DNA of 32,000 nt from Okeania sp. (GTDB lineage: Bacteria; Cyanobacteriota; Cyanobacteriia; Cyanobacteriales; Microcoleaceae): the NCBI RefSeq assembly GCF_035285525.1, contig NZ_JAYKGW010000244.1, positions 1 through 32,000 of the forward strand, given 5' to 3'. Under the pieces are notes generated by a model that was not told the DNA's origin, did no database searches, and saw only the letters and a list, made by a program, of their open reading frames with translations. Position 1 is the stretch's first letter. Every line of letters begins with the position of its first letter. Positions 138-19,366 of this stretch are shown piece by piece. A program made the translations under genes and the position numbers.

Positions 138-138
138 T

Positions 139-472: not shown

Positions 473-525
473 TTAATAATTACCTCCTCTGATTTATTGA
501 AAACTAATAAATTTAAGCGACAGAT

Positions 526-1080
526 TTACTCGAATACTGGCGGCCAAATTTCTGATATTGGTAGTTCCCAACCAGGTAATAATTCCGGGATAGTCAATTT
601 ATCTTCATTGGTTAAAAGTATCGGTTCTCCAGAAGCACGATATACGGTTACAGTCAAGTTTTTGGGGTCTACTAAAATCCCCACTTGAGAGCCTAATTCA
701 ATAAATCTTTGGAGTTTTTCAACCAGAGGTTTAATGTTATCCGATGCTGACCTGACTTCGATAGTTAAGTCAGGAACAATTTCGGCAAAAGCACGGGGCG
801 CTCGACGCATTTTGGCAGCAGGAACAAAGGATACATCAGGACCGCGTAAGTTGCCATCTGGGAGACGAAAACCTGCACTAGAGGCCGTAACATAACCTAG
901 AGCTTTTGGTATTACCCAGTTTTGTAAGAAAAATATTAACCGAGCGACAATAACTTCGGAAACGTAGTCTGATAATCCCATGATGATAATTTGACCGTCA
1001 ACTAATTCGGTGCGGTAGTCTAGATGGGCTTCTGTTAGTTGTGTTTGGACTTTTTCTAAGTCTGCAACTGTTAGAGACAT
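526..1080 (-). CDS. Uma2-family (DUF820) putative endonuclease
   Basis: This is the ORF-track frame 526..1167. I place the start at the internal ATG 1078-1080 (MSLTVADLEK...) because GGAG lies 7 nt upstream and the product is then 184 aa, typical for the family. The PDLTIEVRSASD motif and overall pattern match the Uma2-family proteins abundant in cyanobacteria. Confidence 0.8.
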   Translation of the reverse strand: MSLTVADLEKVQTQLTEAHLDYRTELVDGQIIIMGLSDYVSEVIVARLIFFLQNWVIPKALGYVTASSAGFRLPDGNLRGPDVSFVPAAKMRRAPRAFAEIVPDLTIEVRSASDNIKPLVEKLQRFIELGSQVGILVDPKNLTVTVYRASGEPILLTNEDKLTIPELLPGWELPISEIWPPVFE

Positions 1081-1190
1081 AAGGCATCTCCTATTACTAT
1101 TTGAGACTGTTGCTGGGATTATACCAGAAAATTTCTTGATAATGCAATATAAGTTATCAGTTATCACAAAAATACAACCCAGTTGGTATC

Positions 1191-1277
1191 TTTCTAAGAA
1201 AATGTTTGATTTTTAGGTGAACCCAGAAACCGGATTTATTTGCGTAACTCCTATTTCTAAGAAAATGTTTAATTTTT
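1191..1277. repeat. 24-nt direct repeats flanking a 39-bp family-A MITE fragment
   Basis: TTTCTAAGAAAATGTTTGATTTTT (1191-1214) and TTTCTAAGAAAATGTTTAATTTTT (1254-1277) differ at one base. They bracket AGGTGAACCCAGAAACCGGATTTATTTGCGTAACTCCTA (1215-1253). Confidence 0.85.
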
Positions 1278-1372
1278 TTGGCAAAAGAACAGAAGATTAA
1301 CTTTGTGGTGTTATATTAACAAAGTAAGAACAGCCAAATAATATCCAAAACCTTATCAGTGGAGGAAAAACC

Positions 1373-3955: not shown

Positions 3956-3961
3956 TTAACC

Positions 3962-4029
3962 AGGAGTTATGCAAAGAAACCCGGTTTCTTGTAGAAACTG
4001 GGTTTCTGGGTTTGTATTGTGTAACTCCT
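3962..4029. mobile_element. MITE-like element, family A variant (ends AGGAGTTATGCA / TGTGTAACTCCT; internal GAAACCCGGTTTC palindromes)
   Basis: It begins 6 nt after the stop of 1373..3955. Terminal inverted repeats and GAAACCCGGTTTCT / GAAACTGGGTTTCT cores are visible. Family members recur at 8 other loci in this window. Confidence 0.75.
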
Positions 4030-4047
4030 TTTAAGTAATTGATAATC

Positions 4048-4137
4048 AGGACTTACGCAACTGCAAGGGATTTTACATTGCGACCGAAGGGAAGCAATCT
4101 CAAGCCCCTGTTTTTTGTAGCTCATGGCTTTAGTCCT
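4048..4137. mobile_element. MITE-like element with ends AGGACTTACGCA / GGCTTTAGTCCT
   Basis: The 5' end AGGACTTACGCA and the 3' end CATGGCTTTAGTCCT (reverse complement AGGACTAAAGCCATG) match the termini of elements at 12009-12110, 25227-25328 and 26806-26917. Confidence 0.6.
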
Positions 4138-4227
4138 AATAATTTAAAATTTTGCTGAAATTGCAATCTAATCCAGCGATCGCTACAAAACTAAAATTGT
4201 GGTTTAGGAGCTAGGAAGTGGGGAAGA

Positions 4228-4297
4228 CCTCTCCCCCAACCCCTCTCCTGCAAGGAGAGGGGAGAAATGCTCCCGGTTGGGGGGTTAGGTTTTTTCT
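4228..4297. repeat. Dispersed G/C-tract hairpin repeat (family D)
   Basis: The unit reads CTCCCCCAACCCCTCTCCTGCAAGGAGAGGGGAG...GGTTGGGGGGTTAGGTTTTTT. The CCCCTCTCC/GGAGAGGGG hairpin and the GGTTGGGGGGTTAGGTTTTT tail recur at 23943-24010. A related hairpin CCCCCTTTGAAAGGGGG lies near 29410-29470. Confidence 0.6.
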
Positions 4298-4384
4298 CAA
4301 TACCCCCTTGATATTCTACCGAACATAGTGTATAAGAATATGGATGCCAAATAATATCCAAAATCTACCAGTAGAAGAAAAACT

Positions 4385-7300
4385 ATGATGAATGACACCG
4401 AATTTCTCGATATAACGCCCGTCCTCGGACTACAACAAATCCACAATATGCCAGATATAGCTTTTCTAGGGGAAGTATCTGTAGAATCAGAGACAACAGT
4501 GGAAATAATTGAAAAAGCGTTAGCAGAAGTTCAGAATAATTTAATAGACTTTGCTACTGCTTCAACTTTTGAGATGGATATATTAACTGTGTTTGGGGAG
4601 TCAGTGGATGTTGATTTAGCAGAAACAATTATTGATGCTTTGGCAGTTGGTGAGGAGTTACCCCAAATAATTGTGGCGTCCGCAGAAGAGATGAATGGTG
4701 CAGCGGGTGGTCTTGATTCTATGAATGGTACGGTGTATTTGGCGGATAGTTTGATTAATGAGGGTTTTTTGCCTGTTGCGGATGTATTGGTGGAAGAGTT
4801 CGGACATTTGGTTGATTCGGAGTTGAATACAATAGATACTCCTGGAGATGAGGGGGAATGGTTTGCAGCCAAAGTTCGTGGTGATGTTTTGAGTGAGGAA
4901 GATGTGGCGCGGTTGCAGCAGGAAGATGATAAAATTAGGATTTTTGGTGGGTTAGTTGAGGTGGAGGCAAACACTTCAAAGGTATTCTCTTTAGATGACA
5001 GTAAGATTTTCAGTGGCGTTTTAAACGAATCTAATCAGACAGATTACTATCGTTTTGAACTCAGAAATGTTTCAGATTTCAGTGCCTATTTGTATGGATT
5101 GACTGGCGACGCAAATGTGTACCTTTATCCAGATTACAATAACAATGGTGTAGTTGATTCTGATGAAAGTTATTTAACTTACAGCAATAACGGTGGTACA
5201 AGTGCTGAATCTATAAGCGCAAGGCTGCCAGCTAACAACTATTTGGTAAGGGTTAGTAGCACTAACTTAGCAGAGTACCAACTTCGGCTTGTGAACGAAA
5301 CCGAAAGTGCTATAAACGTCGGTAATTTAAGGAGTGAGGTTATTTACAGCAAGGATAGCTTGCCGATCAAAGGTACACCTGACAAAACAGATTATTACCG
5401 CTTCGAGCTGAAAAAGGCTTCAGACTTCAGCGCTTATTTGTATGAATTGACTGGTGATGTCAATGTGTATCTTTATCCCGACTACAACGACAACGGTGTG
5501 ATTGATTCTGACGAAGGTTATTTGACTTACGGTAATAATGGTGGAACAACTGCCGAGTCTGTAACTGAAAGATTATCTGCTGGAAAATACTTAGTAAAAG
5601 TTAGCGGCGACTCTTCTACTTCGACAGAATACCAACTGCGACTTGTGAATGAATCTGGTAGCGCTGTCAATGTTGGGAATTTACAAAAAGATGCGATATA
5701 CAAAGATGTTGTTGGGGCAAGAAAACCGACTGATAAAACAGATTATTACCGCTTCGAACTGAAAAAAACTTCATACTTTAGTACTTATTTGTACGGATTG
5801 ACTGGGGATGCTAATATCTACCTTTATCCTGACTACAATGACAATGGTGTAGTTGATTCTGATGAAAGTTATTTAACTTACAGCAATAACGGTGGTACAA
5901 GTGCTGAATCTGCAAGCGCAAGGCTATCTGCAGGTAACTACTTGGTAGGAGTTTATAGCAACTCTTCTGTTTCGACAGAATACCAACTGCGACTTGCGAA
6001 CGAATCTGGTAGTGCTGTAAATGTTGGGAACTTACAAAAAGATGCCATCTACAAAGACATTGTTGGTGAAAGAAACCCAGCTGATAAAATAGATTATTAC
6101 CGCTTTGATCTAAAAAAGGCTTCAGACTTCAGTGCTTCTTTGTATGGGTTGACTGGTGATGCAAATTTGTACCTTTATCCAGATTACAACGGCAATGGTG
6201 TAGTTGACTCTGATGAAAGTTATTTAACTTACAGCAATAACGGTGGTACAAGTGCTGAATCTATAACTACGAGGCTATCTGCGGGTAAATATTTGGTGAG
6301 TGTTTACAGCAGCTCTCCGACTTCTACAGAATATCAACTTCGACTTGTAAATGAATCCAATGGTAGCGGAAACGAAAGTGATATTGTTGAATATCCTGAA
6401 AAAATTCCAGCGACAGTTGAATTTCCTGAAGAAAGGCTCAAACCTATTTCAGTTAACGATACTTCAAAAGGTCAAAACGAAGCAACCCCTAAAATAGCTA
6501 TCAGCAACGCGAACATCACTGAAGGCAACAAAGGTCGCAAAAACGCCAAATTTACTGTCACCCTTGACAATGAAAGTGACAACACAGTTCAAGTAAACTA
6601 CTCAACCGCCAACGATACCGCCAAAGCAGGAAAAGATTACCAGAAAACTAATGGTACTCTTACCTTCAAACCAGGTCAAACCAAAAAGACTATAAAGGTT
6701 CCTATCCTGGGCGACACTATCGAGGAAAGCAACGAAAAATTTAACCTCAACCTCAGCAAACCAAAAAATGCCACACTTTTAGATAAACGAGGCATCGGTA
6801 CTATTCGCAACGATGATAAAACTCTACCCAAAATATCCATTGGCGACGCCCAAATAACCGAAGGCGATAACGGCAAAAAACAACTCAAATTCGACGTTAC
6901 TCTCAGCACTACAGTGAACCAAAGAGTTGAAGTAAATTATGCCACCGCCGACGACACTGCCGAAAAAGGTTCCGACTACCAAAAAACTAAAGGTAAACTC
7001 GTTTTCAAACCCAACCAGAGGAAAAAGACTATAACTGTTCCCATTTTAGGTGATACTCTCCAGGAAGAAGATGAAACCTTCACCGTCAACCTCAGCAAAC
7101 CTAAAAATGCTAAATTGGGAGATAGACGCGCTATTGGTAAAATTAAAGACAATGAAAAAGGAAATCCCAAAAACCCAGATGATGGTGATACCTTTGATGT
7201 TCCCATCAACTTAGGCCAACTTGTGGAGAGAGAGGTAATCACCAATAACATCGGCACTACCGAAGGTCTGTACCGCGACACTGACGACTACTACCGCTTT

Positions 7301-7525
7301 AAAATTAACCGCGAAGGTACTTTACGGGTATTTATGGATAGTTTGTTTGAAGATGCTAACGTGGAATTATTAGGAAGTAAGCAAGAACTGATTAGTCAGT
7401 CAGAAAATGAGGGTTTAGCAGCGGAAGAGATTATTCAAACATTAGACCGTGGCGTTTATTATGTGCGGGTATATCCTAGCGGTGGCGATCGCACTCCTTA
7501 TCGTTTGAGCTTAACCCTGATTTAA
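4385..7525 (+). CDS. Large repeat protein, paralog of 1373..3955: shared N-terminal module + 4 PPC-like repeats with acidic DxNxNGxxDSDE loops + 2 Calx-beta repeats + C-terminal PPC-like domain
   Basis: 1046-aa ORF. The N-terminal ~200 aa are roughly 80-85 percent identical by eye to the 1373..3955 protein, including VLVEEFGHLVDS and DTPGDEG. There are four ~116-aa repeats (DKTDYYRFELKK.SDFSAYLYGLTGDANVYLYPDYNDNGVVDSDESYLTYSNNGGTSAES...YLV.V......EYQLRLVNES). Two Calx-beta-like units lie at about 6490-7150. The C-terminal PPC-like domain reads DTDDYYRF...GVYYVRVYP...PYRLSL. About 45 nt of 5' leader and the 3' flank, including a family-A MITE, are also duplicated. Confidence 0.9.
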   Translation: MMNDTEFLDITPVLGLQQIHNMPDIAFLGEVSVESETTVEIIEKALAEVQNNLIDFATASTFEMDILTVFGESVDVDLAETIIDALAVGEELPQIIVASAEEMNGAAGGLDSMNGTVYLADSLINEGFLPVADVLVEEFGHLVDSELNTIDTPGDEGEWFAAKVRGDVLSEEDVARLQQEDDKIRIFGGLVEVEANTSKVFSLDDSKIFSGVLNESNQTDYYRFELRNVSDFSAYLYGLTGDANVYLYPDYNNNGVVDSDESYLTYSNNGGTSAESISARLPANNYLVRVSSTNLAEYQLRLVNETESAINVGNLRSEVIYSKDSLPIKGTPDKTDYYRFELKKASDFSAYLYELTGDVNVYLYPDYNDNGVIDSDEGYLTYGNNGGTTAESVTERLSAGKYLVKVSGDSSTSTEYQLRLVNESGSAVNVGNLQKDAIYKDVVGARKPTDKTDYYRFELKKTSYFSTYLYGLTGDANIYLYPDYNDNGVVDSDESYLTYSNNGGTSAESASARLSAGNYLVGVYSNSSVSTEYQLRLANESGSAVNVGNLQKDAIYKDIVGERNPADKIDYYRFDLKKASDFSASLYGLTGDANLYLYPDYNGNGVVDSDESYLTYSNNGGTSAESITTRLSAGKYLVSVYSSSPTSTEYQLRLVNESNGSGNESDIVEYPEKIPATVEFPEERLKPISVNDTSKGQNEATPKIAISNANITEGNKGRKNAKFTVTLDNESDNTVQVNYSTANDTAKAGKDYQKTNGTLTFKPGQTKKTIKVPILGDTIEESNEKFNLNLSKPKNATLLDKRGIGTIRNDDKTLPKISIGDAQITEGDNGKKQLKFDVTLSTTVNQRVEVNYATADDTAEKGSDYQKTKGKLVFKPNQRKKTITVPILGDTLQEEDETFTVNLSKPKNAKLGDRRAIGKIKDNEKGNPKNPDDGDTFDVPINLGQLVEREVITNNIGTTEGLYRDTDDYYRFKINREGTLRVFMDSLFEDANVELLGSKQELISQSENEGLAAEEIIQTLDRGVYYVRVYPSGGDRTPYRLSLTLI
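5039..6360 (+). repeat. Four intragenic tandem repeats, 348-351 nt period
   Basis: The unit anchor ACAGATTA(C/T)TA recurs at 5039, 5387 and 5738, with a variant ATAGATTATTA at 6089. Long stretches are shared between units, e.g. GGTGTAGTTGATTCTGATGAAAGTTATTTAACTTACAGCAATAACGGTGGTACAAGTGCTGAATCT. Confidence 0.9.
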
Positions 7526-7531
7526 TAAACT

Positions 7532-7569
7532 AGGAGTTATGGAAAGAAACCCGGTTTTTGGGTAACTTA
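7532..7569. mobile_element. Truncated family-A MITE (same position relative to the stop codon as 3962-4029)
   Basis: AGGAGTTATGGAAAGAAACCCGGTTTTTGGGTAAC starts 6 nt after the stop of 4385..7525 and aligns with the 5' part of 3962-4029. Confidence 0.6.
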
Positions 7570-7805
7570 AATTATAGCACCAGCATCCTGCTTGTTTTAC
7601 CAAACAGGCAAGATGCCTGTGTTACTGGGGGCGATCGCTAAAAACTACTTACCAAAAAATTAAAGTAATCCTTATGGGACTTACCAAAGAATTACAGCCG
7701 TTTTCATTTAGGTGAACCACAGTAGGGAGGTTACATGCAATGTCCCTACTGGATTTTAATTATGGCGATATGGTTCAGGCATTTGAAAAGCACTGTAATA
7801 AGGTT

Positions 7806-7898
7806 GAAAAATCAGCGCTTTTTGGGCGCATAGTTAGGCAAAAAAATTACTCCCTACCTCCCTACCTCCCTATCTCCCCATCACCCTATCTCCCTATC
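7806..7898. repeat. Dispersed repeat (family E) ending in an octamer array (TCCCTACC/TCCCTATC/TCCCCATC x6) that contains the mysD stop codon
   Basis: The octamer units run from 7851 to about 7898, and the TAG stop of 7894..8997 (7894-7896) lies inside the last units. The reverse complement (GGAGATAGGGTGATGGGGAG...GGGAGTAATTTTTTTGCC.AACTATGC) recurs at 19088-19135 and 20268-20330. Confidence 0.8.
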
Positions 7899-8997
7899 TC
7901 TCCACAACTCTATTGACATACTTAAACGTAGAACCACCCGCAACCCGAGTTCGTTTAGCTGCCACAGTCCACAACTCCAAAGCAATATCCTCAAAACTTT
8001 GCCCATCAGCTTCAAGCATCCGCGAAATCATGCTAATTTTCCCAAAAGCCCAAAATAAACCTGCTTCGAGCAAATATGGCTCATTGGTTTCCTCATGTAC
8101 CCGAAAGTCATACAAAGAATAATCGCGACAGCCCAAGGCAATATGAGCTGTTTTCGCTGCATTCGCTACTTTTTCAAATAACTCTGGGGTAACATTTGCC
8201 GGACAAACTTGTTTAGCTACAGGTTTCTCAGGTTGCTTTTCGGGAGTGCCGTCTGATCCTAGTTCTAATTTATCATGTAAAGTTCTAATCGGGTTTTCCT
8301 TTGTAACCAAATATTCTATCATTGGTAAGACTTGCCATTCACCCTTGCGCTCAACTACACCAACACGCAATTCTCTTCCCGGAATGTAATCTTCAACTAA
8401 CAAAGTATCATCTAGCTCAAACCCTTTATCTAATGCTGCTTCTATTCCAGTTTCATCCCATACCAATGTTATCCCTAGAGAATTATCTTCTGAAGTTGGC
8501 TTAACTACAAAAGGAGGCTTCATGGTTACAGTATCTCCCCGTCGTAGTTGCTGTGCTTTAGCTACTTGTACTCCAGACACTGAGACAATGTTGCGTGTGT
8601 GAGCTTTGTTAGTAGCTAGTGCCGTACAATGAGATGCCGAACCAACTACAGGTATACCTAGCATATCCTCGAAAAATGCTCGGAAACTGGTCATCCCAGG
8701 AAAGCAAAACATGTGTGGAATTACAACATCAATTTCAGGTAGTCGGGGAATCATGTCTTGAAATGATATTTTCTCAGACAATGAATCTAAGGATGCTCCC
8801 AACTGCCAAAAACCATCTGGATGTACGACTGCATAATAACTACTAACACCAACTGGTTGCACTACTTCTTTGGCGTAGAGTATTGATAAGTTGTAATAAA
8901 AGTTAGATACACGGGAACCTGCGAGGTGCAAGACTCGTAATGTAACCGTTGTGTCTGAGGACAGATGTTGATTTTGATTCACTATTTCTGATTTCAT
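7894..8997 (-). CDS. mysD: D-Ala-D-Ala-ligase-like ATP-grasp enzyme, MysD-type (adds the second amino acid to mycosporine-glycine)
   Basis: 367-aa ORF with a Ddl-like ATP-grasp layout (LRVLHLAGS...; GIPVVGS; FVVKP..EDNSLGI; EDYIPGRELRVGV). It is co-oriented with mysA/B/C, and no NRPS-type mysE is present. The assignment rests on family resemblance plus cluster context. Confidence 0.8.
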   Translation of the reverse strand: MKSEIVNQNQHLSSDTTVTLRVLHLAGSRVSNFYYNLSILYAKEVVQPVGVSSYYAVVHPDGFWQLGASLDSLSEKISFQDMIPRLPEIDVVIPHMFCFPGMTSFRAFFEDMLGIPVVGSASHCTALATNKAHTRNIVSVSGVQVAKAQQLRRGDTVTMKPPFVVKPTSEDNSLGITLVWDETGIEAALDKGFELDDTLLVEDYIPGRELRVGVVERKGEWQVLPMIEYLVTKENPIRTLHDKLELGSDGTPEKQPEKPVAKQVCPANVTPELFEKVANAAKTAHIALGCRDYSLYDFRVHEETNEPYLLEAGLFWAFGKISMISRMLEADGQSFEDIALELWTVAAKRTRVAGGSTFKYVNRVVER

Positions 8998-9030
8998 AAC
9001 TAAATTATTCTGTATTGTTTTGATTAAAAA

Positions 9031-9092
9031 AGGAACCCAGAAACCCGGTTTCTTTGTTCTGGTAGAAACCGAGTTTCTTTGCGTAAGTCCTG
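9031..9092. mobile_element. Family-A MITE occupying about two-thirds of the 95-bp spacer between the DMT transporter gene and mysD
   Basis: AGGAACCCAGAAACCCGGTTTCTTTGTTCTGGTAGAAACCGAGTTTCTTTGCGTAAGTCCTG; the 3' terminus TGCGTAAGTCCT is the family TIR. Confidence 0.75.
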
Positions 9093-10073
9093 TTAATTAG
9101 AAGACTTAATTTCTGGATTTACAGAAGATCTACTAGAGATTGCCAAAGACATTCCCAATAAAATTATCATAAAACTTACCAAAGTTGAGAAGTTAAGATT
9201 TTCTGAGAAGATTACCCAACCTTCTACTGCACTGAGAAAGGGAATAAATAATGCAGTCAAGCTAGTAAACCCAGGAGATAATTTTTTCAGACAATATACC
9301 CAAAGTCCTATGCCTAGCATTTGACTAATAAGAGCTTGACCAATAACTGAAAGCCAACCACTTAATGAACTGGGAAAAAGTTGATCCTCAGTAATTAGAA
9401 CTACAGGTAATAGTAATAATGCACTTGTTGTTGAAGACCAGGACATAATTGTCACTGGGCTAAACTGGTTACGAAGTTGCTTAATAATGAGCGGGTGTAT
9501 GCCAAAAAATACTGCTGAAAGCAAGGCTGCTAAATCTCCTAATAGTTCTGCACTCATTCTCAATGAGAAAAGGTCATTTACATCTAACAAAGCAGAACCA
9601 AAAATTGTGACAAACATACCTAACATAAATCGGCGATCGACGGTTTGACTCAAAGCTAACCATCCTCCTAGAACAGTAAAAATTGGCACCAAATTATGAA
9701 TAAGAGTAGAGTGAGCAATACTTGTCTGAGTTAAAGACCAAGCCCAAAACATCAAACCAATGGATAAAATAACCCCATCTGCTATCAGTAGTTTGGCTGC
9801 CTTAGCTAGATGGGGTTTCTCTGATTCAATTTGAGTCTCATTTTTTCGTTTTCGGTAATGGATGGTTATAAATCTACTTAGTAGCCCAAAAGCAATAGCT
9901 GCAATCCAAAAACGATTGAATATTGTAGCATTCGGACTGAGATCATATTCGCTTAAACGGATGAAAATTGGTGAAAAAGATAGACAGATTAGACCACCAA
10001 ATAATGCAGCTAAGGAGTCTATCGGTAATAACGATAAATGGTTAAATTGTAATGCTTTAGCTTGAGTGTTCAT
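9093..10073 (-). CDS. DMT-superfamily (EamA-like) permease
   Basis: 326-aa polytopic membrane protein with about ten hydrophobic segments in two similar halves. This is typical of EamA-domain metabolite exporters. Confidence 0.8.
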   Translation of the reverse strand: MNTQAKALQFNHLSLLPIDSLAALFGGLICLSFSPIFIRLSEYDLSPNATIFNRFWIAAIAFGLLSRFITIHYRKRKNETQIESEKPHLAKAAKLLIADGVILSIGLMFWAWSLTQTSIAHSTLIHNLVPIFTVLGGWLALSQTVDRRFMLGMFVTIFGSALLDVNDLFSLRMSAELLGDLAALLSAVFFGIHPLIIKQLRNQFSPVTIMSWSSTTSALLLLPVVLITEDQLFPSSLSGWLSVIGQALISQMLGIGLWVYCLKKLSPGFTSLTALFIPFLSAVEGWVIFSENLNFSTLVSFMIILLGMSLAISSRSSVNPEIKSSN

Positions 10074-10423
10074 TTTTCTCCTGATATCATGTCCGGTTGA
10101 ATAGTTACATTTCGGACGAAGGAAGGCAGCTATGCTGAATGCAGAAGCTTTTCTACTATTTTTACCTTGATTTTATACACCCACGGTGCCCGAAAAATCA
10201 GATGCTAACTGACATGATATGATTTATAAAATTAACAAAAATAAAATCAATTTTGATCGGTAAATTACAGCGGGTTCCAGTTTGGTGAGGTATAGCAATG
10301 TGCGCACTTAATATTTAAATATTATTTTTTGTACACTTTGTCTAGAATCGACTTTGAGCTGGGCTTTGTAAATACCTGATCGCTCATTCCTATACATCCG
10401 CGCGAGCAAAATGTACTGTTCCC

Positions 10424-11842
10424 CTACTCTCTACTCCCTAAATTTGCAATTCCATAAACAATAAAACCTGCTGCCATACCAGGAAATACTTCATAAATAG
10501 CACTTGATAAGTTAAGTCCTACATTCCAGATAATAGAAACGACTATACCAGTAATCATCATTGTTATTGCCACTGGCAAGCTTACAGGTTTTTGCCATAC
10601 CCGCAATACCAATAACGGACCTAAACCACAAGCTAAAACTGACCAAGAAAAAATTACCAAACCAAATACACTCTTGTTTGCTGTGAGAGCGATCGCCAAC
10701 ACAATACCACTAACAAGTAGGGTAGCAATTTTAACTTTCCTATAAGATTGAGTAGCACGGGGAACTAAATCTTGACTGAGAGCAGCAGAACATGATAATA
10801 TTTGGGAATCTGCTGTGGAAATAGCTGCTGAAAAAAGTCCTGCTAACATCAAACCTATCAAAATTGTTGGCAATAATTCTATGGATAAATTCGGTAATGC
10901 TAATTCTGGGTCTCCAGATGTCATTAAGTCAGGCAACAAAACTCTGGCAGTTAGTCCTATACCAAAAGCTGTAGCAGAATTCATTTGACCGCAGATAAAT
11001 TTTATGTTACGAGCTAAGGCTACATTATCTGCGGAGTCTATTGCCATTCCTCTCACCAATATATGAGGTTGACCAACTGCACCAAACCCTGCGACTACCC
11101 ATCCCAAAAAGTAAGGAACAAATCCCCAACGTAAATTAGCAGGTATCCAGTTTGTCAAGTTAGGATCGATAGCATTAAGTTTGACCCAAAGTTCTCCAAA
11201 TCCTCCACAGGCAATTAAACTTACGATAAACAGAACCCACAAAGACCCGATCATTAAAACTGCTTGCACGGAGTCAGTCCAGATAGAAGCTCGGATACCT
11301 CCTGCAAAACAGTAGGCTACCACAATTACAGATCCAATAATAATCCCTACTTGATAGTTCCACCCAAATATGGCATTCAATCCTTTGCTTGCTGCTACCA
11401 GTTGAGCTGAGGCATAAGTACCGAGAAATACTATGATGATTAAGGCTGAAATTATTCTAATCCAGCGCCCCTGATTTTTCTGCCCCTGATTTTCTTGACC
11501 TAAAAATGAAGAAACTGTATCCGAATTTGTTTCCTGAGAAACTAACCTCAACCTCCTAAATATTAACCACCAAGCAATATAGTCTCCTATCGCCCAAGCT
11601 ATGGGTATCCAAATAGAAGCAAATCCCACCTTGTAGGTAAAACCAATTACGCCAATAAACAGATATCCACTTTGACCTGTTGCCATTGCTGATAGTGCTG
11701 TTAACCAGGGATTGACATTTCTACTTGCTAGTAAGTAATCTGTTGTTGTGTTTTGTTTTTGGGTTGCCGAATATATACCAACTAATGTAAATGACAGTAA
11801 AAAGGCAATAAATGTTATGGCAATCCAAATTTGTTTTTCCAT
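10424..11842 (-). CDS. Sodium:solute symporter family (SSS, PutP-like) transporter
   Basis: 472-aa polytopic protein with SSS hallmarks as I recall them from PutP-type proteins: DYLLASRN..PWLTALSAMATGQSGYLF, GGIRASIWTDSVQ, GQPHILVRGMA, AAISTADSQILSCSAALSQDL. Confidence 0.85.
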   Translation of the reverse strand: MEKQIWIAITFIAFLLSFTLVGIYSATQKQNTTTDYLLASRNVNPWLTALSAMATGQSGYLFIGVIGFTYKVGFASIWIPIAWAIGDYIAWWLIFRRLRLVSQETNSDTVSSFLGQENQGQKNQGRWIRIISALIIIVFLGTYASAQLVAASKGLNAIFGWNYQVGIIIGSVIVVAYCFAGGIRASIWTDSVQAVLMIGSLWVLFIVSLIACGGFGELWVKLNAIDPNLTNWIPANLRWGFVPYFLGWVVAGFGAVGQPHILVRGMAIDSADNVALARNIKFICGQMNSATAFGIGLTARVLLPDLMTSGDPELALPNLSIELLPTILIGLMLAGLFSAAISTADSQILSCSAALSQDLVPRATQSYRKVKIATLLVSGIVLAIALTANKSVFGLVIFSWSVLACGLGPLLVLRVWQKPVSLPVAITMMITGIVVSIIWNVGLNLSSAIYEVFPGMAAGFIVYGIANLGSRE

Positions 11843-12008
11843 AATTTTAGGTCAATTGCTAGGGAAAACTCAGGATTGACATCCTCTCCTTTTCAAACCA
11901 AATTTATTCTAGCATCGAAAATTAAAGTTTAATAAAAAAACTATAAATTATATTTTTTTTCTTAATTTACTTTTTATTAAATGAAAAACAAATTAGCTTT
12001 GATATAAA

Positions 12009-12110
12009 CAGGACTTACGCAAAGAAACCCGGTTTCTACGAGAAATTGTTGTTTTGAACAGTAAGAATCTAGGAGAAACCAGAAACCCGGTTTCGCGTGG
12101 CTTTAGTCCC
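12009..12110. mobile_element. Family-A MITE
   Basis: CAGGACTTACGCAAAGAAACCCGGTTTCTAC...GGAGAAACCAGAAACCCGGTTTCGCGTGGCTTTAGTCC. Confidence 0.75.
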
Positions 12111-12243
12111 GATCAAATCAATCTGTTTTTTTAGCGATCGCTCTATGATTACTAATTTTTGAATATGTACCTCACAATAACAGAAATCACTAGCTCTAGT
12201 AGGTTTGGTTAAGGTACGAAACAAGGGCAAAAATTTTGTGTAT

Positions 12244-12305
12244 TAGGGTGGGTTTATATAAACCTTAGAATAAGCATGAAAATTTCCGATCAAACCCGCC
12301 CCTAC
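12244..12305. mobile_element. Family-C hairpin MITE
   Basis: TAGGGTGGGTTTATATAAACCTTAGAATAAGCATGAAAATTTCCGATCAAACCCGCCCCTAC is collinear with the unit at 72-134. Confidence 0.85.
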
Positions 12306-12321
12306 ATATTGCACCATTTTA

Positions 12322-12532
12322 GCAGACGTAGTAAATTAATAATTAGAAATAGTTTTAACTACCAATTGTTAATTATTAATAATTAATTATTTAATCTCCC
12401 CCCAATTCTAGCAGCAGACGTAGGTTGGGTTTCGTACCTCAACCCAACATTAGTAAATTAATAATTAGAAATAGCTTTAACTACCAATTATTAATTATTA
12501 ATTATTAATTATTTAATCTCCCCCCAATTCTA
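12322..12532. repeat. Tandem duplication of the mysC 3' end plus downstream sequence (copy A 12322-12410, copy B 12414-12532)
   Basis: Both copies run GCAGACGTAG...TAAATTAATAATTAGAAATAG.TTTAACTACCAATT.TTAATTATTAAT...ATTTAATCTCCCCCCAATTCTA. The last 20 nt (12391-12410 and 12513-12532) encode ELGGD-stop of mysC. Copy B carries an extra ~30-bp hairpin GTTGGGTTTCGTACCTCAACCCAAC flanked by TAG on both sides. (TTAATTA)n heptamers are expanded in copy B. Confidence 0.9.
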
Positions 12533-13877: not shown

Positions 13878-13916
13878 ATTAGTAGTTTTATAGAAATAAA
13901 AAAAAGTTAAAAATAT

Positions 13917-14020
13917 CAGGACTTACGCACACCAAACCCAGAAACCCGGTACGAGGGTAGATGTTTATAGTTCAAAACAACGGTTTGTCCTAGAAACCGG
14001 GTTTCCCATGCGTAAGTCCT
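13917..14020. mobile_element. Family-A MITE with clean 12-nt TIR
   Basis: CAGGACTTACGCACACCAAACCCAGAAACCCGG...CTAGAAACCGGGTTTCCCATGCGTAAGTCCT. Confidence 0.85.
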
Positions 14021-14096
14021 AAATATATGATTGTGTAAGCATGCAGCCGTCAGCTAGCTACTGGTAGTCCATTATTTTATCTTAAATAATGCAATA

Positions 14097-14158
14097 GTAG
14101 GGGCGGGTTTGATCAGAAATTTTTCTGCTTACTCTAGGATTTATATAAACCCGCCCCT
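14097..14158. mobile_element. Family-C hairpin MITE (inverted orientation)
   Basis: GTAGGGGCGGGTTTGATCAGAAATTTTTCTGCTTACTCTAGGATTTATATAAACCCGCCCCT is the reverse complement of the 72-134 type. A partial GGGGCGGGTTGATC follows at 14178-14191. Confidence 0.85.
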
Positions 14159-14407
14159 GAAACGGCAGCCTATATCATGGGGCGGGTTGATCTGACTTAA
14201 TGCGTGAAAACTCGTTAACTTTCGTTATGATTTTTCGGGAACCGTAACCCGCTTCTACAGAACCTGATTCCCTAATGCACCATTTCAGGCGTGTCAGTCG
14301 AGTAGGGTTTGTTTTCGGCCTTTGAGCCGACATGAAACGCTGCGCGACATGAAAAGCGTTGGCGCAGCATTCCCCAAGAAAACGTAACACACCAATCAAA
14401 TATATCA

Positions 14408-14929
14408 TGACTAAAGCCATGAATGCTATTATTAGGGTGTGTTTTGCGTTCCGCAAAGCTCCGCTTTATATGTCGGCTCAAGCGCCGAAACGCTACGCGA
14501 CATGTGAAGCGCACAACGCACAACGCACCCACACATTATATATAGTACCTTTGCCTAAGTCCTGATATATAGAGTTGTTGCGTAAGTCCTAAAATATATG
14601 ATTTAGGACTTACGCACGAACACTATTTTTAGGGTGCGTTTTGCGTTCCGCAAAGCTCCGCTTTATATGTCGTCTCAAGCGCCGAAACGCTACGGGACAT
14701 GGAAAGTATATCTCGTAACTGAGCAAGACTCTATATATAGTGCCTCCCGTGTAAGTCCTGAATATATGATTTAGGACTTACGCATGAACGCTATTATTAG
14801 GGTGTGTTTTGCGTTCCGCAAAGCTCCGCTTTATATGTCGGCTCAAGCGCCGAAAGGCTGCACGACATGAAAAGCGCACAAAGCACAAAGCACCAAGACT
14901 CTATATATAGTGCCTCCCGTATAAGTCCT
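14408..14929. mobile_element. Three head-to-tail copies of a ~160-bp MITE (family B; ends AGGACTTACGCA / ..GT.TAAGTCCT)
   Basis: The copies lie at about 14408-14563, 14605-14759 and 14773-14929. They share ..CTATT.TTAGGGTG.GTTTTGCGTTCCGCAAAGCTCCGCTTTATATGTCG.CTCAAGCGCCGAAA.GCT.C..GACATG.AAAG...CTATATATAGT.CCT. Copies are separated by the same short spacer A(A)ATATATGATTT. An inverted partial copy lies at about 14270-14360. Confidence 0.85.
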
Positions 14930-14996
14930 GTAATTGTAGGAATTTTCACAAGTAGCAGGAAAAATGCCCGCGTGGGTGTATTGAACCAAGGTAAAA

Positions 14997-15827
14997 CTAC
15001 TTTCGTCTAATAATAGTCACTCCATCTCTTAGAGGCAATAAAACTTGTTCTACTCTGGGGTCTTCTGCCACAAAACGATTAAATTGAGCGATCGCTTCAC
15101 CATTAGTAGTACGTTTTTCTGGAGGGAGATAAGGTTGTCCTTGGAGTAAAGTATTATCAACAAAAATAAACCCATTTGGTGCTAATAAACCTGTATCCAA
15201 GAGCATTTGAAAATATTCTATATACCCTCCTTTATCAGCATCAATAAACACTAAGTCAAAGGATTCTCCTGCATCTGCCAACTTTTTCATAGTTTCTATA
15301 GCTGGAGCAACTTCGATTGATATTTTACTACCATCAGGAGACTTGTCAAAACAAGCTCTAGCAAAGTCAGATACATATTGATCGACTTCACAAGCAACCA
15401 TTCGCCCATCTTCTGGTAATGCTTCTGCCATTGCTAATGCTGAATATCCAGTAAACATTCCGATTTCCAGAATACTTTTGGCTCCAGTCATATAAACAAA
15501 CATTTTTAAAGTTTGCCCCTCAATATGCCCAGATAACATTTCCTGTTCTAACTGACGTACAGTCTCACTATTAGAAAATCTTAAATTCCAGGGTTCTTGG
15601 CGAGTCTTTTCTGCTAATGCTGCCAAAGCAGTTGACTCTTGAGTAGTCATGTCCTCTATATAAGGGTCAAGACCTGCTCCTAATTCATAAGCTTCTTTAA
15701 TAGCATCAGCTAGCTCGGATGGTACTTCTATATTTTCTGCCATCTTGACAATTTTTTCAAGTTGCTGCACCAAAATACCTAATGGTGTAACTGGTCTGGC
15801 AGTTTCTGTATTTACAACGGTTGTCAT
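14997..15827 (-). CDS. mysB: SAM-dependent O-methyltransferase MysB (desmethyl-4-deoxygadusol -> 4-deoxygadusol)
   Basis: 276 aa. ARPVTPLGIL, LEQEMLSGHIEGQTLKMFV, LEIGMFTGYSALAMAEALPEDG, FDLVFIDADK, VDNTLLQG and VEQVLLPLRDGVTIIRR match my recollection of Ava_3857/NpR5599-type MysB (caffeoyl-CoA OMT-like fold). Confidence 0.92.
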   Translation of the reverse strand: MTTVVNTETARPVTPLGILVQQLEKIVKMAENIEVPSELADAIKEAYELGAGLDPYIEDMTTQESTALAALAEKTRQEPWNLRFSNSETVRQLEQEMLSGHIEGQTLKMFVYMTGAKSILEIGMFTGYSALAMAEALPEDGRMVACEVDQYVSDFARACFDKSPDGSKISIEVAPAIETMKKLADAGESFDLVFIDADKGGYIEYFQMLLDTGLLAPNGFIFVDNTLLQGQPYLPPEKRTTNGEAIAQFNRFVAEDPRVEQVLLPLRDGVTIIRRK

Positions 15828-15830
15828 TTC

Positions 15831-15851
15831 AGTTATTAGTTATTAGTTATT
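15831..15851. repeat. Heptamer array (AGTTATT)x3 immediately upstream of the mysB start codon
   Basis: AGTTATTAGTTATTAGTTATT begins 4 nt upstream of the mysB ATG (15825-15827) in gene orientation. A second heptamer array (GGGAGTA)x3 lies at 15881-15905. Confidence 0.85.
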
Positions 15852-16028
15852 AGTAGTGCATTAGACATCTCCAGAAAAGAGGGAGTAGGGAGTAGGGAGT
15901 AGGGGGAAAGAATAGATGATTTTCGTACGATAATTGATTTAATTTTTTATTTTTGGAGATGTCTATTGTTTCACCTAAAATAGTGCAATAGCTTTTTTTG
16001 TGACCCCATCCCCCCATCTCCCCATTTT

Positions 16029-16147
16029 CTAATGCACCATTTAAGATGACACAGTCCAGTAGGGTGTGTTTCGCTACGCGACATGAAAAGCGCACTTCAT
16101 AACGCAACTACACACTATATGTAGTACATTTCTTTGCATAAGTCCTG
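16029..16147. mobile_element. Family-B-related MITE copy
   Basis: CTAATGCACCATTTAAGATGACACAGTCCAGTAGGGTGTGTTTCGCTACGCGACATGAAAAGCGCAC...CACACTATATGTAGTACATTTCTTTGCATAAGTCCTG is collinear with 26806-26917 and the 14408-14929 copies. Confidence 0.75.
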
Positions 16148-16402
16148 TTACTCTAAACCTAGATCGCTGCTCTATCAAACTTACACAAAAAGTCACATAG
16201 TGTGACAATTTGATACTTACTCACCTGCTGTACGGACGTTGCATAACAAAAATGCGAACGTCCCTACTGAGGCCGTCGGCGGTTTCTCACCCACAGACAT
16301 TCACGGTCCTTTGATCCGCAACGCTAGTGCGAAGGGAGTCAGCGGAGCGTAGCTCTGGCCGACCGCATCTCTCGCTATTTATACTTGCGTTTAAATCTCT
16401 AG

Positions 16403-16493
16403 GCAAAGAAACCCGGTTTCTACACTAAATCACTGTTTTGAACAAGAAACATCTAGGAGAAACCGGCTTTCTGGGTTTTGCTGCGTAAGTCCT
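16403..16493. mobile_element. Family-A MITE ending 7 nt from the mysA stop codon
   Basis: GCAAAGAAACCCGGTTTCTACACTAAATCACTGTTTTGAACAAGAAACATCTAGGAGAAACCGGCTTTCTGGGTTTTGCTGCGTAAGTCCT; its internal part is collinear with 12009-12110. Confidence 0.8.
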
Positions 16494-16500
16494 TTGTCTT

Positions 16501-17829
16501 TTACTCTAGACCTAAATCACTCAAATACATTTCTTCGCCTTGTCCTTCACCAGGTAAAGCAGCACAATATTTCTTATGCTCCTCAACAGCAGATTCTAAG
16601 AACAATGAAGGTACTTCACCAGCAAAACTACAAGAACCAATACCTGTAGGTAGAGGTGCCCATAGACCACTACTACCACGCTTGCGACGCATATTTTTCT
16701 GACCTTTAAGCATTAACTCTGTATCTTCGATGATAGGATGGTAAACTGACAAGCCGATAGAAGAACACAAAGCAACGATGCGGTTGCGCTCTGCTTCATT
16801 TACCCAACCCATTTCTAAAGCTAGAGTAGCTCCAAAAGCCATACCAATACCTACAGCATGACCGTGCATCAATTTAGCTGCTGGCTCAAAACGAGGACTC
16901 CAGGTATGACCGTAAGCGTGAGGTCTGTCTTGATAGGTCTCGAACATATTTGTTCCTTCATGCTTCATGTAGGAATACAAAGCACGATAAATCACTTCAT
17001 CAGCTATTTTCACTAATTCCTCATCCGCATCAAAGTTGGCAAAATGAGTATCCAATAAACGCTTACCGTATTTTTCCATCAATTCAAATAATACTGGATC
17101 ATCGGTAACTGCCATTTTAATGATTTCTGCCATTCCATTACGAATATGACCTTTTGCCAGAGTAGCGAATAAAGTACGGTCTACAATAGTTAGTACAGGA
17201 GGATGGTAAGCACCAATACTATTCTTAAATAGATTACCATTTGTACAAGTACGAGGAGATGGAGCCGCATCAATAGCTGCCACAATTGAACTTCCAATCA
17301 TTACATAAGGTGTCCGTCTGTGTTGCAAACTACAAGCTAAACCTGCAACATCACTTAGTACACCACCTCCAATGACTAAAACAGGTTCGTTACGGGATAC
17401 ATCACAACCATCTTTACCCAAGAATGCCAATATTTTATGGACTGTTTCTGGAGTTTTGTCTGATTCCCAAGCACGACAAACAAGCACTTCTAAAGGAATC
17501 TCATTTTGATTAAAGTAATTTTTCAGTTTCTCTCCGTATAGCTCATCTACTGTCTTATCGACAACTGCTACACAACGACCACGACTTTTGTAAACTTCAG
17601 CTAAAGTAGGATCAGATGGATTTAAAACTCCAGTAACTAATCTTACTTCTGACTGGAGAGTAAATGTTGCATTAATTTGGAATGAACGACCATCTTCTAC
17701 AGCTCTGATTTCTCCACGGCCATCATACCATTCTGAGGTACGATATTTTTCTGCGTGCTCGCGACGAATACTTGGATCGAATGTAAAGTCGGCTTTTGTG
17801 ATTTCTTCTTTTACTGGAGTAGATACCAT
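16501..17829 (-). CDS. mysA: DHQS-like sedoheptulose-7-phosphate cyclase; by context desmethyl-4-deoxygadusol synthase (MysA)
   Basis: 442 aa with sugar-phosphate-cyclase motifs: VLVIGGGVLSDVAG, KNSIGAYHPP, RNGMAEIIKMAV, HAYGHTWSP, HGHAVGIGMAF. It lies directly upstream of mysB and mysC on the same strand. Distinguishing DDGS from EEVS/EVS needs an alignment I cannot run. Confidence 0.85.
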   Translation of the reverse strand: MVSTPVKEEITKADFTFDPSIRREHAEKYRTSEWYDGRGEIRAVEDGRSFQINATFTLQSEVRLVTGVLNPSDPTLAEVYKSRGRCVAVVDKTVDELYGEKLKNYFNQNEIPLEVLVCRAWESDKTPETVHKILAFLGKDGCDVSRNEPVLVIGGGVLSDVAGLACSLQHRRTPYVMIGSSIVAAIDAAPSPRTCTNGNLFKNSIGAYHPPVLTIVDRTLFATLAKGHIRNGMAEIIKMAVTDDPVLFELMEKYGKRLLDTHFANFDADEELVKIADEVIYRALYSYMKHEGTNMFETYQDRPHAYGHTWSPRFEPAAKLMHGHAVGIGMAFGATLALEMGWVNEAERNRIVALCSSIGLSVYHPIIEDTELMLKGQKNMRRKRGSSGLWAPLPTGIGSCSFAGEVPSLFLESAVEEHKKYCAALPGEGQGEEMYLSDLGLE

Positions 17830-19366
17830 AGTTTTTGGTTGTATTTAGGTAATTGTTTGCATTAGAACTTTAGCTTGCTGCTATCACACAACAAACTCTT
17901 GCGACTACACTTGAAGTTAGTATAGTAGCTTAATTTAATACTTGTTTGGGAACTACGCCCAGATAGCGATCACTACGGATATACCTGAAATCACGACTAA
18001 CCATACAACACATATAGTTGTGGCATAAGTCTCAATTATGATTTATATTGATGATATAACCTAAAGGACTTGCTATTTCTTGGGAGCAGTTTTTCAGTAT
18101 TGAATAATAGGGTAATTATTTTTGTTGCTATCTTGTGCTTGAATGTTAGTACATATAGCAAATTCCAAATATATGAAGCACAGATTTATTTATTAAATCT
18201 TCATAAGTAGCGATTTTTCGGGAACCGTCCATCCTACTCGCTTAAGTGTATCTCATAAAAGTGGAATCCGCTGTAATACATTAAATCTAGATGAATCTTC
18301 GTGTAAATCTTTTAAAGAATCACTTTGATCCACCATAAATTTAACAATTTTCCTAAAATAGAATATCCCATTATGCAATCGCTTTTTTATCACAGCAAAA
18401 CTTAGCTCAGTTTGCTTAACTGTTGATCGCAAAACTGAACTAATGCTTATTGGTTTTTGCTTATAATTGTGGTTCTCCACAATTCTATAGTGGAAAGTTG
18501 CTCTTCTTCTTTCTCGTCTAATTTCCACTTTAGATTAGAACCATGATTCACATTTTGATCTGGGTTTAATAGTTTCCTGATAGTTCTGGTGTCTAGCATA
18601 GTTGTTAAGTCCTCTGTTTATTACTAAATAACTTACTGATAAGTATTGATTGTGCCAACCTGAACCCTATTGAAAGTTTTTAGTTGGCCTTTAGAGATTT
18701 TGCTACTGCTTTTGCTGAAAGGCAAACTCAACAACTGATATTAAGTCCATAGCCAATGAGGGCTTTTCGGTACTTCTTGCCTACTTTAAAAAGTCCTACC
18801 TATGGTTAATAGCACATAATATTTTTATAGTCAAGTAATTAACTTAAAAATTAATTTTTTACTCTTGACTCTCAGTTTAACCCTAATTACTACTCTTTTT
18901 ACTTAATATTAATTTAATAGTTCTTAAGATTTATTAAAAATGTATAAAATTAGTAAATAATTTACATTTTTAACCTTATTTTATAGTAAGATACTTATTT
19001 TTTTCAATATAACTATTATCTAGTCCACCTAATGTCCAAGTTAGATATTAGGTATTGGAGTAAGTAGGGTTTGCGGAAAAAATATTTTTAAGGAGATAGG
19101 GTGATGGGGAGTAATTTTGTTGTCCAACTCTTCCCCAAAGTAGGCTCCTTTTTGAATCAGAGCTACTCAAAAAGTTGCACTTTTAGGGTTCCCGATAAAT
19201 CAGAACCTAAAAAAGCTAAAATCTTTAAATGATTTTTGAGAAAAAAAATTGTTTGGGTTTGGTCTCCAAACCCAAACGTAATTGGTCTCCAAACCCAAAC
19301 TTAAAGGGATTCGGCAACCGAACCCCCTTGGCTCAAATCTGACAATCTATTTAGGATTGCGATATA

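Follow-up and report, generated by a model that had tools for sequence, protein, structure and literature searches.

Transporter genes of the SSS and DMT families as conserved accessory members of cyanobacterial mycosporine-like amino acid gene clusters

A stretch of 32,000 nucleotides from Okeania sp. [quoted passage not shown] Two transporter genes, encoding an SSS-family Na+/solute symporter and a DMT/EamA permease, are embedded in this cluster between mysC and mysD. The comparison of this arrangement with other cyanobacterial loci leaves us highly confident that both genes are genuine and long-conserved accessory members of cyanobacterial mys clusters. As regards their physiological roles, we tentatively favour a participation of the DMT protein in MAA efflux and of the SSS protein in Na+-driven recapture of MAAs or in the uptake of precursors.

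Results

Conservation of the DMT gene in mys clusters

A scan of the GTDB set, in which each species is represented by one genome, was performed with an alignment of DMT homologs as query and yielded 77 loci with 10-kb flanks. These loci were searched by tblastn with six proteins of the window and with the proteins of a module that neighbours the DMT gene in Nostocales. According to Pfam, this module comprises an O-methyltransferase (OMT; PF00891), a TauD-family dioxygenase, a C-A-T-TE enzyme resembling nonribosomal peptide synthetases (NRPS) and a BT1/MFS transporter. The DMT protein was at least 46% identical to that of the window in 53 loci, of which 52 were counted because one is a 1.9-kb contig that could not be assessed. 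MAA genes, represented by mysA to mysD and/or the OMT/TauD-dioxygenase/NRPS module, were detected beside the DMT gene in all 52 loci, whereas they were absent from all 24 loci with a DMT protein of 41-45% identity. The linked DMT proteins constitute one clade in a midpoint-rooted neighbour-joining tree without bootstrap support values, and all 44 unlinked sequences are located outside this clade.

Linked DMT genes were found in Okeania, Dapis, Trichodesmium erythraeum IMS101, Moorena, Symploca, Hormoscilla, Roseofilum, a member of the Prochloraceae and Richelia as well as in Calothrix, Dulcicalothrix, Scytonema, Brasilonema, Tolypothrix, Nostoc, Iningainema, Stigonema and Plectonema. The linkage of transporter genes is maintained in at least eight gene orders, examples of which are compiled in Table 1, and it persists when MysD is exchanged for a MysD-like ligase or an NRPS as the last enzyme of the pathway. 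The DMT gene of Nostocales directly precedes the TauD-family dioxygenase gene, mostly with a gap of 61-101 bp that extends up to 2.6 kb in a few loci.

Table 1. Gene orders of transporter-bearing MAA loci
Gene order	Taxa or loci	Detected with
mysABC-SSS-DMT-mysD	Okeania, Dapis	DMT scan
mysAB-DMT-mysC-mysD	Roseofilum	DMT scan
DMT-mysD divergent from mysCBA	Prochloraceae	DMT scan
mysABC ... DMT-SSS-ligase	Moorena	DMT scan
mysABC-DMT-dioxygenase-NRPS	Scytonema, Tolypothrix	DMT scan
mysABC-OMT-DMT-dioxygenase-NRPS	Brasilonema	DMT scan
OMT-DMT-dioxygenase-NRPS away from mysABC	Calothrix, Nostoc	DMT scan
mysA-mysB-panD-mysC-SSS-mysD	Geitlerinemataceae	SSS homologs
mysABC-SSS-mysD	Crocosphaera, Calothrix rhizosoleniae, P0102, P0098	SSS homologs
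mysABC-SSS-NRPS	Coleofasciculus, Oscillatoriales RM2_1_1	SSS homologs
mysABC-SSS-DMT-...	P0025, P0115	SSS homologs
mysABC-DMT-SSS-mysD	P0108	SSS homologs

A third kind of transporter, the BT1/MFS protein (PF03092, PF07690), recurs in the OMT-DMT-dioxygenase-NRPS module of Nostocales (loci L031, L034 at 15791-17017, L042, L044-L047 and L050). Recruitment of transporters has thus taken place repeatedly in MAA clusters.

Occurrence of the SSS gene in mys clusters

The best 120 homologs of the SSS protein show 62-100% identity, and all named ones are of cyanobacterial origin. An exact look-up of the window protein returned a sole match, a 1.9-kb read-assembly contig without gene context. The genomic context was inspected for 11 homologs that were picked for long contigs and taxonomic spread, their neighbours being unknown beforehand. 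Ten of the 11 genes (63-75% identity) are located inside mys clusters (Table 1).

To avoid the bias of starting from a transporter, metagenome contigs were additionally scanned with a MysC alignment. This approach provided 80 loci representing the closest relatives of the Okeania MysC protein, and 58 of them had enough flanking sequence for an assessment. The SSS gene was present in 29 of the 58 loci; in 27 metagenome loci it directly follows mysC, from which it is separated by 11-1001 bp and with which it shares the strand. Ten loci contain a DMT gene with at least 46% identity of the deduced protein, four of which also contain the SSS gene, and 23 loci (approximately 40%) contain neither transporter gene. 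All these counts refer to loci that are phylogenetically non-independent and not to evolutionary events. The SSS gene is accordingly very widespread in mys clusters, of which it has not previously been described as a component. The clusters devoid of both genes indicate that neither transporter is needed for MAA production.

The pairwise divergence of the transporters was compared with that of MysC, resulting in correlation coefficients of 0.68 for SSS, 0.76 for DMT and 0.77 for the core gene mysB, with the reservation that locus pairs are not independent. The divergence of both transporters thus tracks that of MysC, in agreement with a long history of joint inheritance with the cluster. The compact relative L083 has 66 bp between mysC and the SSS gene, while its SSS and DMT genes overlap by 4 bp and the DMT gene is separated from mysD by 13 bp, which is an operon layout as judged from gene spacing.

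The SSS-bearing clusters belong, by their record names, to marine or saline taxa, including Okeania, Trichodesmium, Crocosphaera, Moorena, Coleofasciculus, Calothrix rhizosoleniae and Hormoscilla. Clusters containing only the DMT gene dominate in terrestrial and freshwater Nostocales, whereas SSS-bearing clusters dominate in marine taxa, many marine clusters carrying both genes. The habitats were assigned from record names and general knowledge.

These data bear on an earlier note on this DNA, which had been made from the sequence alone and had proposed a substrate-import and MAA-export pair encoded within the cluster. The recurrent adjacency of the SSS and DMT orthologs to mys genes, which the note had put forward as a check by synteny, was observed for both genes, and the opposite layout, with contiguous mysC and mysD genes and the transporter genes elsewhere, was absent from all recovered Okeania, Dapis and Trichodesmium loci. 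The link of each gene to the cluster was hence borne out, whereas a fixed pair was not, in view of the clusters with only SSS, only DMT or neither gene. An obligate import/export pair is ruled out, as each transporter is frequent without the other, and the occurrence of each gene alone characterizes the two as independent accessory modules.

We give hardly any credence to the view that a functional link is missing altogether and that the genes are neighbours merely by shared descent in one lineage. The recurrence over about twenty genera of Oscillatoriales, Nostocales, Chroococcales and other groups in at least eight gene orders, the overlapping or near-abutting genes of compact clusters and the sharp boundary of the DMT clade all speak against it. 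It would be compatible with the substantial share of sampled mys clusters without both genes and with the long, repeat-filled spacers of the window, for which promoter and terminator scans were uninformative.

The mys cluster of the window

The genes of the window cluster are summarized in Table 2. Both transporter genes lie between mysC and mysD on the same strand, exactly where the earlier note had placed them, and its distance of 95 bp between the end of the DMT gene and the start of mysD proved to be accurate, as did its assignment of the deduced proteins to the SSS and DMT/EamA families, which is documented by a full-length PF00474 match and two EamA repeats, respectively. The context of Nostoc-type cyanobacteria, in which it had discussed MAA deposition outside the cell, does not apply, since the organism is a marine filamentous member of the Microcoleaceae. 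Both open reading frames (ORFs) are full length in comparison with their homologs, and the deduced proteins are 100% identical to NCBI proteins of Okeania sp. The mysA product is 80-91% identical to that of the first gene in the clusters of Okeania, Dapis and Trichodesmium, and mysB is syntenic across all related loci.

Table 2. Features of the mys cluster in the window
Feature	Position	Strand	Remarks
mysA, dehydroquinate synthase (DHQS)-like sugar-phosphate cyclase, 442 aa	16501..17829	minus	PF01761 and PF24621; first cluster gene
mysB, O-methyltransferase, 276 aa	14997..15827	minus	PF01596, E 1.3e-51
mysC, ATP-grasp ligase, 454 aa	12513..13877	minus	NF005315, 552.7 bits (cut-off 406)
SSS-family Na+/solute symporter, 472 aa	10424..11842	minus	PF00474; clade linked to MAA clusters
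DMT/EamA permease, 326 aa, ten transmembrane helices	9093..10073	minus	two PF00892 repeats; MAA-cluster-specific clade
mysD, ATP-grasp enzyme resembling D-Ala-D-Ala ligase, 367 aa	7894..8997	minus	PF07478, E 4.5e-22; last cluster gene in the window
DMT-mysD spacer, 95 bp	8998..9092	minus	composed of genome-wide short-repeat copies
Conserved small ORF, 50 aa, upstream of mysA	18447..18599	minus	

Genes encoding TauD-like, NRPS-like or PF00891 methyltransferase proteins were not found anywhere in the window. In Dapis, other Okeania genomes and Trichodesmium (loci L002-L016 and L091-L093), the cluster runs beyond mysD into genes for a TauD-family dioxygenase, an NRPS-like enzyme and a PF00891 methyltransferase, and mysD, SSS or DMT genes are often duplicated, whereas the window cluster ends at mysD (positions 1-7893 of the window were compared). 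The TauD-family gene was found here in cyanobacterial MAA clusters, although TauD had been reported solely from outside cyanobacteria in a recent survey (PMC11888242). Immediately past mysD, the plus strand of the window encodes two large secreted-type proteins (1373-3955 and 4385-7525) with repeated pre-peptidase C-terminal (PPC) and Calx-beta domains, and genes for such proteins do not recur beside the mys clusters of relatives.

Two types of mysA, with a mutual identity of 37-39%, were observed in otherwise similar clusters, one being present in L026, L083, L101 and the Nostocales loci and the other in the window (16501-17829). Locus L083 combines the Nostocales-type mysA with an Okeania-type SSS-DMT-mysD block and shares an upstream prfA gene and a gene encoding a 159-aa protein with the window. 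The clusters accordingly look mosaic. In the Geitlerinemataceae cluster (L079 and L080, 8076-8447), a gene encoding the aspartate 1-decarboxylase PanD (PF02261) is inserted between mysB and mysC, which hints at a beta-alanine-containing MAA and at an enzymatic supply of the precursor from within the cluster.

Sequence features of the SSS protein

The SSS protein matches PF00474 with 205.9 bits (cut-off 22.8; E 1.3e-60) over profile positions 1-406 of 406 and passes TIGR00813 with 191.5 bits (cut-off 184). A crude hydropathy scan revealed about 12-13 segments, and the solved structures of the SSS proteins SiaT (5nv9), SMVT and CHT1 are matched by sequence from end to end, but weakly (E about 1e-8). 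The nearest curated models are PutP and then PanF, and the PGAP name of the protein is 'sodium/proline symporter'. The protein fails both PutP equivalogs, with 268.8 bits versus the required 515.5 for TIGR02121 and 173.6 versus 955 for NF011948 (PRK15419).

A full-length alignment of PutP from Escherichia coli MG1655 with 11 cyanobacterial homologs, the window protein being one of them, showed 31% identity between the window protein and PutP. The PutP residues R40, A53, S57, G58, Y140, D187, W244, E311, A337, S340 and T341 are kept in the window protein. Among them, A53, A337, S340 and T341, which we take to be the Na2-site residues of PutP, are invariant across PutP and all 11 cyanobacterial homologs. 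Every aligned cyanobacterial homolog, on the other hand, carries glycine instead of Asp55, glutamine instead of Met56, alanine or valine instead of Tyr248 and an insertion of three residues after Trp244. Asp55 is reported to be essential for Na+-coupled proline uptake by PutP, and Tyr248 belongs to the proposed proline pocket. Since SSS proteins are Na+-coupled importers, the window protein is probably a Na+-coupled importer as well, with a substrate that is probably not proline, and the automatic name is probably wrong for this clade.

In one alternative, the SSS protein would be a general importer of osmoprotectants such as proline, located in the cluster only by virtue of a joint induction of MAAs and osmolyte uptake by salt, desiccation or ultraviolet stress, in which case the DMT protein may still handle MAAs. 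We regard this alternative as quite improbable. The protein carries the PGAP name of a sodium/proline symporter, seven of the residues listed above (R40, S57, G58, Y140, D187, W244 and E311) are common to the SSS protein and PutP, MAAs are themselves osmoprotectants (PMC13131328) and the SSS-bearing clusters originate from saline habitats, all of which would suit such a function, but the scores far below the PutP equivalog cut-offs and the lack of Asp55 argue against it. Moreover, the location of ten out of 11 sampled genes in a mys operon and the divergence in step with MysC would be unexpected for a general carrier.

Another alternative, which corresponds to the version of the earlier note, assigns to the SSS protein the import of building blocks, i.e. 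glycine for MysC and serine or threonine for MysD, and to the DMT protein the export of the finished MAA. An importer inside a biosynthetic cluster is usually taken as a means of precursor supply, the nearest curated models PutP and PanF represent amino-acid-type carriers, and the SSS gene directly follows the gene of the glycine-adding ligase MysC not only in the 27 metagenome loci but also in eight of the ten linked sampled loci. The SSS gene stays next to mysC, however, whichever last enzyme is present, be it MysD, a MysD-like ligase or an NRPS. This retention speaks against a function connected with the second amino acid, serine or threonine, and suggests that all these clusters have the substrate in common, which would be the mycosporine-glycine core or glycine. 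An SSS protein that transports glycine, serine or threonine is not known to us, and the smaller residues at the position of Tyr248 in PutP give no hint of a smaller substrate. Crocosphaera, Trichodesmium and other phototrophs of the open ocean make their own glycine and serine, and free amino acids are available there only at nanomolar concentrations; this self-sufficiency likewise disfavours an import of precursors. In addition, the Geitlerinemataceae cluster L079 meets its precursor supply by an enzyme, PanD, and a search of the whole window at the gathering thresholds of Rfam detected neither a glycine riboswitch nor any other element. On balance, the import of building blocks is considered unlikely.

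Sequence and fold of the DMT protein

The DMT protein contains two EamA repeats (PF00892; 116.9 bits, E 1.1e-33) and gives weak hits, far below the cut-offs, to the exporter equivalogs NF050091 (YddG; 40.8 versus 300) and TIGR00950 (61.8 versus 230.2). As a sequence search of the PDB gave no match, structure prediction and a fold search were used. The AlphaFold2 model (pLDDT 80.9, pTM 0.78) shows ten long helices, and all 39 Foldseek matches at E <= 0.001 have the DMT fold, comprising the triose-phosphate/phosphate translocator (TPT), YddG, LicB, nucleotide-sugar transporters, SLC35B1 and PfCRT. The TM-scores of the top matches TPT (5y78), YddG (5i20) and LicB (7paf) are 0.67-0.70 when normalized by query length and 0.71-0.81 by target length. 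Since this set mixes exporters, an importer and antiporters, the direction of transport is not given by the fold.

The neighbourhoods of unlinked sister DMT genes were inspected in Microcoleus and Nostoc, and no MAA genes were found near them. In Microcoleus (L071, 8095-13090), the sister genes form a tandem pair that is flanked by genes for an MscS-type mechanosensitive channel and a LysE-type exporter, whereas the neighbours in Nostoc encode glycosyltransferases. The Microcoleus neighbourhood resembles a small solute-efflux locus and may be regarded as a weak hint of an efflux theme.

A direction other than MAA export would be conceivable for the DMT protein, which could act as an importer or exchanger, for instance a proton-coupled one for the uptake of MAAs or precursors in habitats of low Na+ that parallels the marine SSS protein, or could export a reactive intermediate or by-product such as 4-deoxygadusol instead of the end product. 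The importer LicB and the antiporters among the fold matches, the prevalence of DMT-only clusters in terrestrial and freshwater Nostocales with SSS-bearing clusters in marine taxa, and the position of the Nostocales gene inside a tailoring module, directly before the dioxygenase gene, would be consistent with this assumption. Many marine clusters nevertheless encode both proteins, for which a division of labour is the simpler account. The efflux-like setting of the Microcoleus sister genes and the fact that most characterized bacterial DME-type DMT proteins with ten transmembrane helices and amino-acid-like substrates are exporters also make a different direction improbable.

Spacers, repeats and a conserved small ORF

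The spacers of the window cluster comprise 95, 350, 670, 1119 and 673 bp and are filled with short repeats. The palindrome GAAACCCGGTTTC is present in 12 copies and TGCGTAAGTCCT in 15 copies, and together they fill every cluster spacer, among them 8998-9092, 11843-12512, 13878-14996 and 15828-16500. Three copies of a 133-nt repeat are located at 14418-14915. Cluster-specific operator sequences were rejected as an explanation for these repeats, as GAAACCCGGTTTC and TGCGTAAGTCCT also occur outside the cluster at 3976-4059 (3976 and 4048), 7546, 25251-25328 (25251 and 25302) and 26905. The repeats therefore represent genome-wide interspersed elements and probably explain why the spacers are unusually long in comparison with compact relatives. 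The spacers within the cluster lack positional conservation in relatives. Runs of the 8-nt unit CTCCCTAC and its variants, which are G-rich on the gene strand, were observed at 7850-7913, 10416-10440, 15886-15910 and 16004-16025, i.e. in the mysA-mysB spacer as well as at the 3' ends of mysD and the SSS gene or shortly beyond them.

A terminator-like site was found in none of the mysC-SSS, SSS-DMT and DMT-mysD spacers, in a scan that was at chance level overall. The counts of the promoter and terminator scans equalled those of shuffled sequence and are uninformative on transcription units.

Upstream of mysA, the window contains a conserved small ORF with the core motif VN[HQ]GCNLKWK[LP]G, the deduced peptides comprising 40-55 aa across the loci. 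Of the 77 loci with at least 1 kb of sequence upstream of mysA, 24 contain it, with representatives in Okeania, Dapis, Trichodesmium IMS101, Coleofasciculus, Tolypothrix and Calothrix (e.g. L004 at 2697-2858 and L008, the IMS101 locus NC_008312.1 4,614,230-4,635,204, at 1811-1969). Its orientation agrees with that of mysA, at an upstream distance of 190-990 bp, in all but one of 27 other loci, the exception being L043, where it is located about 840 bp upstream of the DMT-dioxygenase-NRPS module. Conserved DNA around the small ORF and upstream of mysA extends over 18319-18947 and 17836-17941. Differences between the core codons are almost confined to synonymous third positions, a pattern that indicates a coding small ORF. 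Neither Pfam nor NCBIfam contains a match to the deduced peptide, for which three genomes give only the name 'hypothetical protein'; it may act as a leader peptide of the MAA operon or as a micro-protein with a regulatory function.

Discussion

Transporters in the MAA literature

The statement of the earlier note that no dedicated MAA transporter has been characterized agrees with our literature searches, which revealed only two drawings of an unnamed 'transporter', one in the mys cluster of Brasilonema (PMC9918943) and one in Hyella patelloides (PMC8472315), each with a single mention and without a proposed function. The Brasilonema transporter is an ortholog of the window DMT protein: loci L036 and L037 contain mysABC, the OMT gene, the DMT gene (50% identity of the deduced protein), the TauD-family dioxygenase gene and the NRPS gene in the order published. 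The searches, which left most subscription papers outside their scope so that an earlier mention is possible, provided no paper that characterizes either gene or gives a function to any transporter of an MAA cluster, and none that mentions the SSS gene, the breadth of either association or the clade structure. Transport or export is not mentioned in one review of MAA biosynthesis and two recent papers on the subject, and nothing usable was found on the expression of the mys locus in the Trichodesmium literature.

A possible cycle of release and recapture

MAAs reach very high intracellular concentrations, are also found outside the cells in sheaths and in seawater, and are under development as natural sunscreens. 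Exporters make up most of the characterized bacterial DME-type DMT proteins that handle amino-acid-like metabolites, and sheaths are formed by many of the DMT-bearing taxa. For these reasons efflux is suggested for the DMT protein, which would let MAAs or mycosporine-glycine out of the cytoplasm into the periplasm, the sheath or the colony matrix. The SSS protein, in turn, would return MAAs to the cytoplasm, driven by the Na+ gradient that seawater maintains towards the cell interior. It might thus recapture leaked or released product, and perhaps also product from neighbouring filaments, in the manner of the PutP-like SSS protein OpuE of Bacillus subtilis, which recaptures self-made proline after its release (PMC9437891). 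In a modified pocket, the SSS protein could recognize the N-substituted amino-acid head group that is common to MAAs and proline. The lineages would keep one, both or neither of the two transporters, which together would set the share of MAAs inside and outside the cell.

Recapture is preferred over the import of precursors because the SSS gene is kept whichever enzyme adds the second amino acid, because no SSS carrier of glycine, serine or threonine is known to us and because the changes relative to PutP suggest no smaller ligand. The precedent of OpuE and the osmoprotectant function of MAAs mentioned above point in the same direction. Taken together, MAA efflux by the DMT protein and Na+-driven MAA recapture by the SSS protein, both acting independently, may be called a plausible role assignment that still falls short of being probable. 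The more specific model, in which the SSS clade is a dedicated Na+-coupled transporter of MAAs or mycosporine-glycine, the DMT clade is a dedicated MAA exporter and both run a release-and-recapture cycle, must be rated as doubtful.

Several observations weigh against these proposals. An exporter and an importer of one compound encoded in one operon look futile unless they are regulated differently or handle different molecular species. The long, repeat-filled spacers of the window make co-transcription there no more than a possibility, the roughly 40% of sampled clusters without either transporter gene dispense with both functions, and no mys gene is located within 10 kb of the SSS homolog of Symploca SIO1C2. 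The argument based on the SSS pocket depends on an alignment with 31% identity and on mutagenesis studies of PutP. The fold matches of the DMT protein include an importer (LicB) and antiporters (TPT and nucleotide-sugar transporters), and only four positions (L163, P194, M210 and S300) are specific to the linked DMT clade versus 46 that are common with the unlinked sisters, so that there is no clear sign of a new DMT specificity.

As new members of known families, the two protein clades, each defined and provided with a genomic signature, are the first well-supported candidate transporters of the MAA field. They occur in cultivable, important or fully sequenced organisms such as Trichodesmium erythraeum IMS101, Crocosphaera and Moorena, and they open the exit of MAAs, their retention and their sharing within colonies or mats to uptake and export assays. 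The result also supplies candidate exporters for higher titres in engineered MAA producers. If the proposed cycle exists, it would set the split of a sunscreen and osmolyte between the cytoplasm and the sheath or colony matrix, the filaments of a mat or colony could share one MAA pool, and the SSS protein would be the first importer of its family that a secondary-metabolite operon has enlisted for the handling of its own product.

Comparison with known transport systems

The DMT protein shares two EamA repeats and ten transmembrane helices with the DMT exporters YddG, EamA (YdeD) and RhtA. Its TM-scores with YddG (5i20) are 0.67-0.70 by query length and 0.76-0.81 by target length, but the identity in the structural alignments with YddG-type exporters amounts to only 15-17%, and the DMT protein belongs to a clade that is confined to cyanobacteria and defined by MAA-gene neighbours. 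The logic proposed for the SSS protein is similar to that of GgtABCD of Synechocystis for glucosylglycerol and TeaABC of Halomonas for ectoine, with which producers keep an uptake route for leaked or released solute. In contrast to the SSS protein, these systems are ABC and TRAP transporters with proven substrates, and their genes are not embedded in a biosynthetic operon.

The same concept, a sunscreen pathway that is genetically linked to proteins by which the compound or its precursor leaves the cytoplasm, is represented by the ebo genes for the export of the scytonemin precursor, which are mentioned in 10.1101/2023.09.07.556661. The proteins and the chemistry are unrelated, and the function of the ebo genes has experimental support, whereas synteny alone suggests the role of the window transporters. 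The Na+/proline symporters OpuE and PutP belong to the same superfamily and branch as the SSS protein. Their genes are part of a proline catabolism or osmostress locus, whereas the SSS gene of Okeania resides inside a secondary-metabolite operon.

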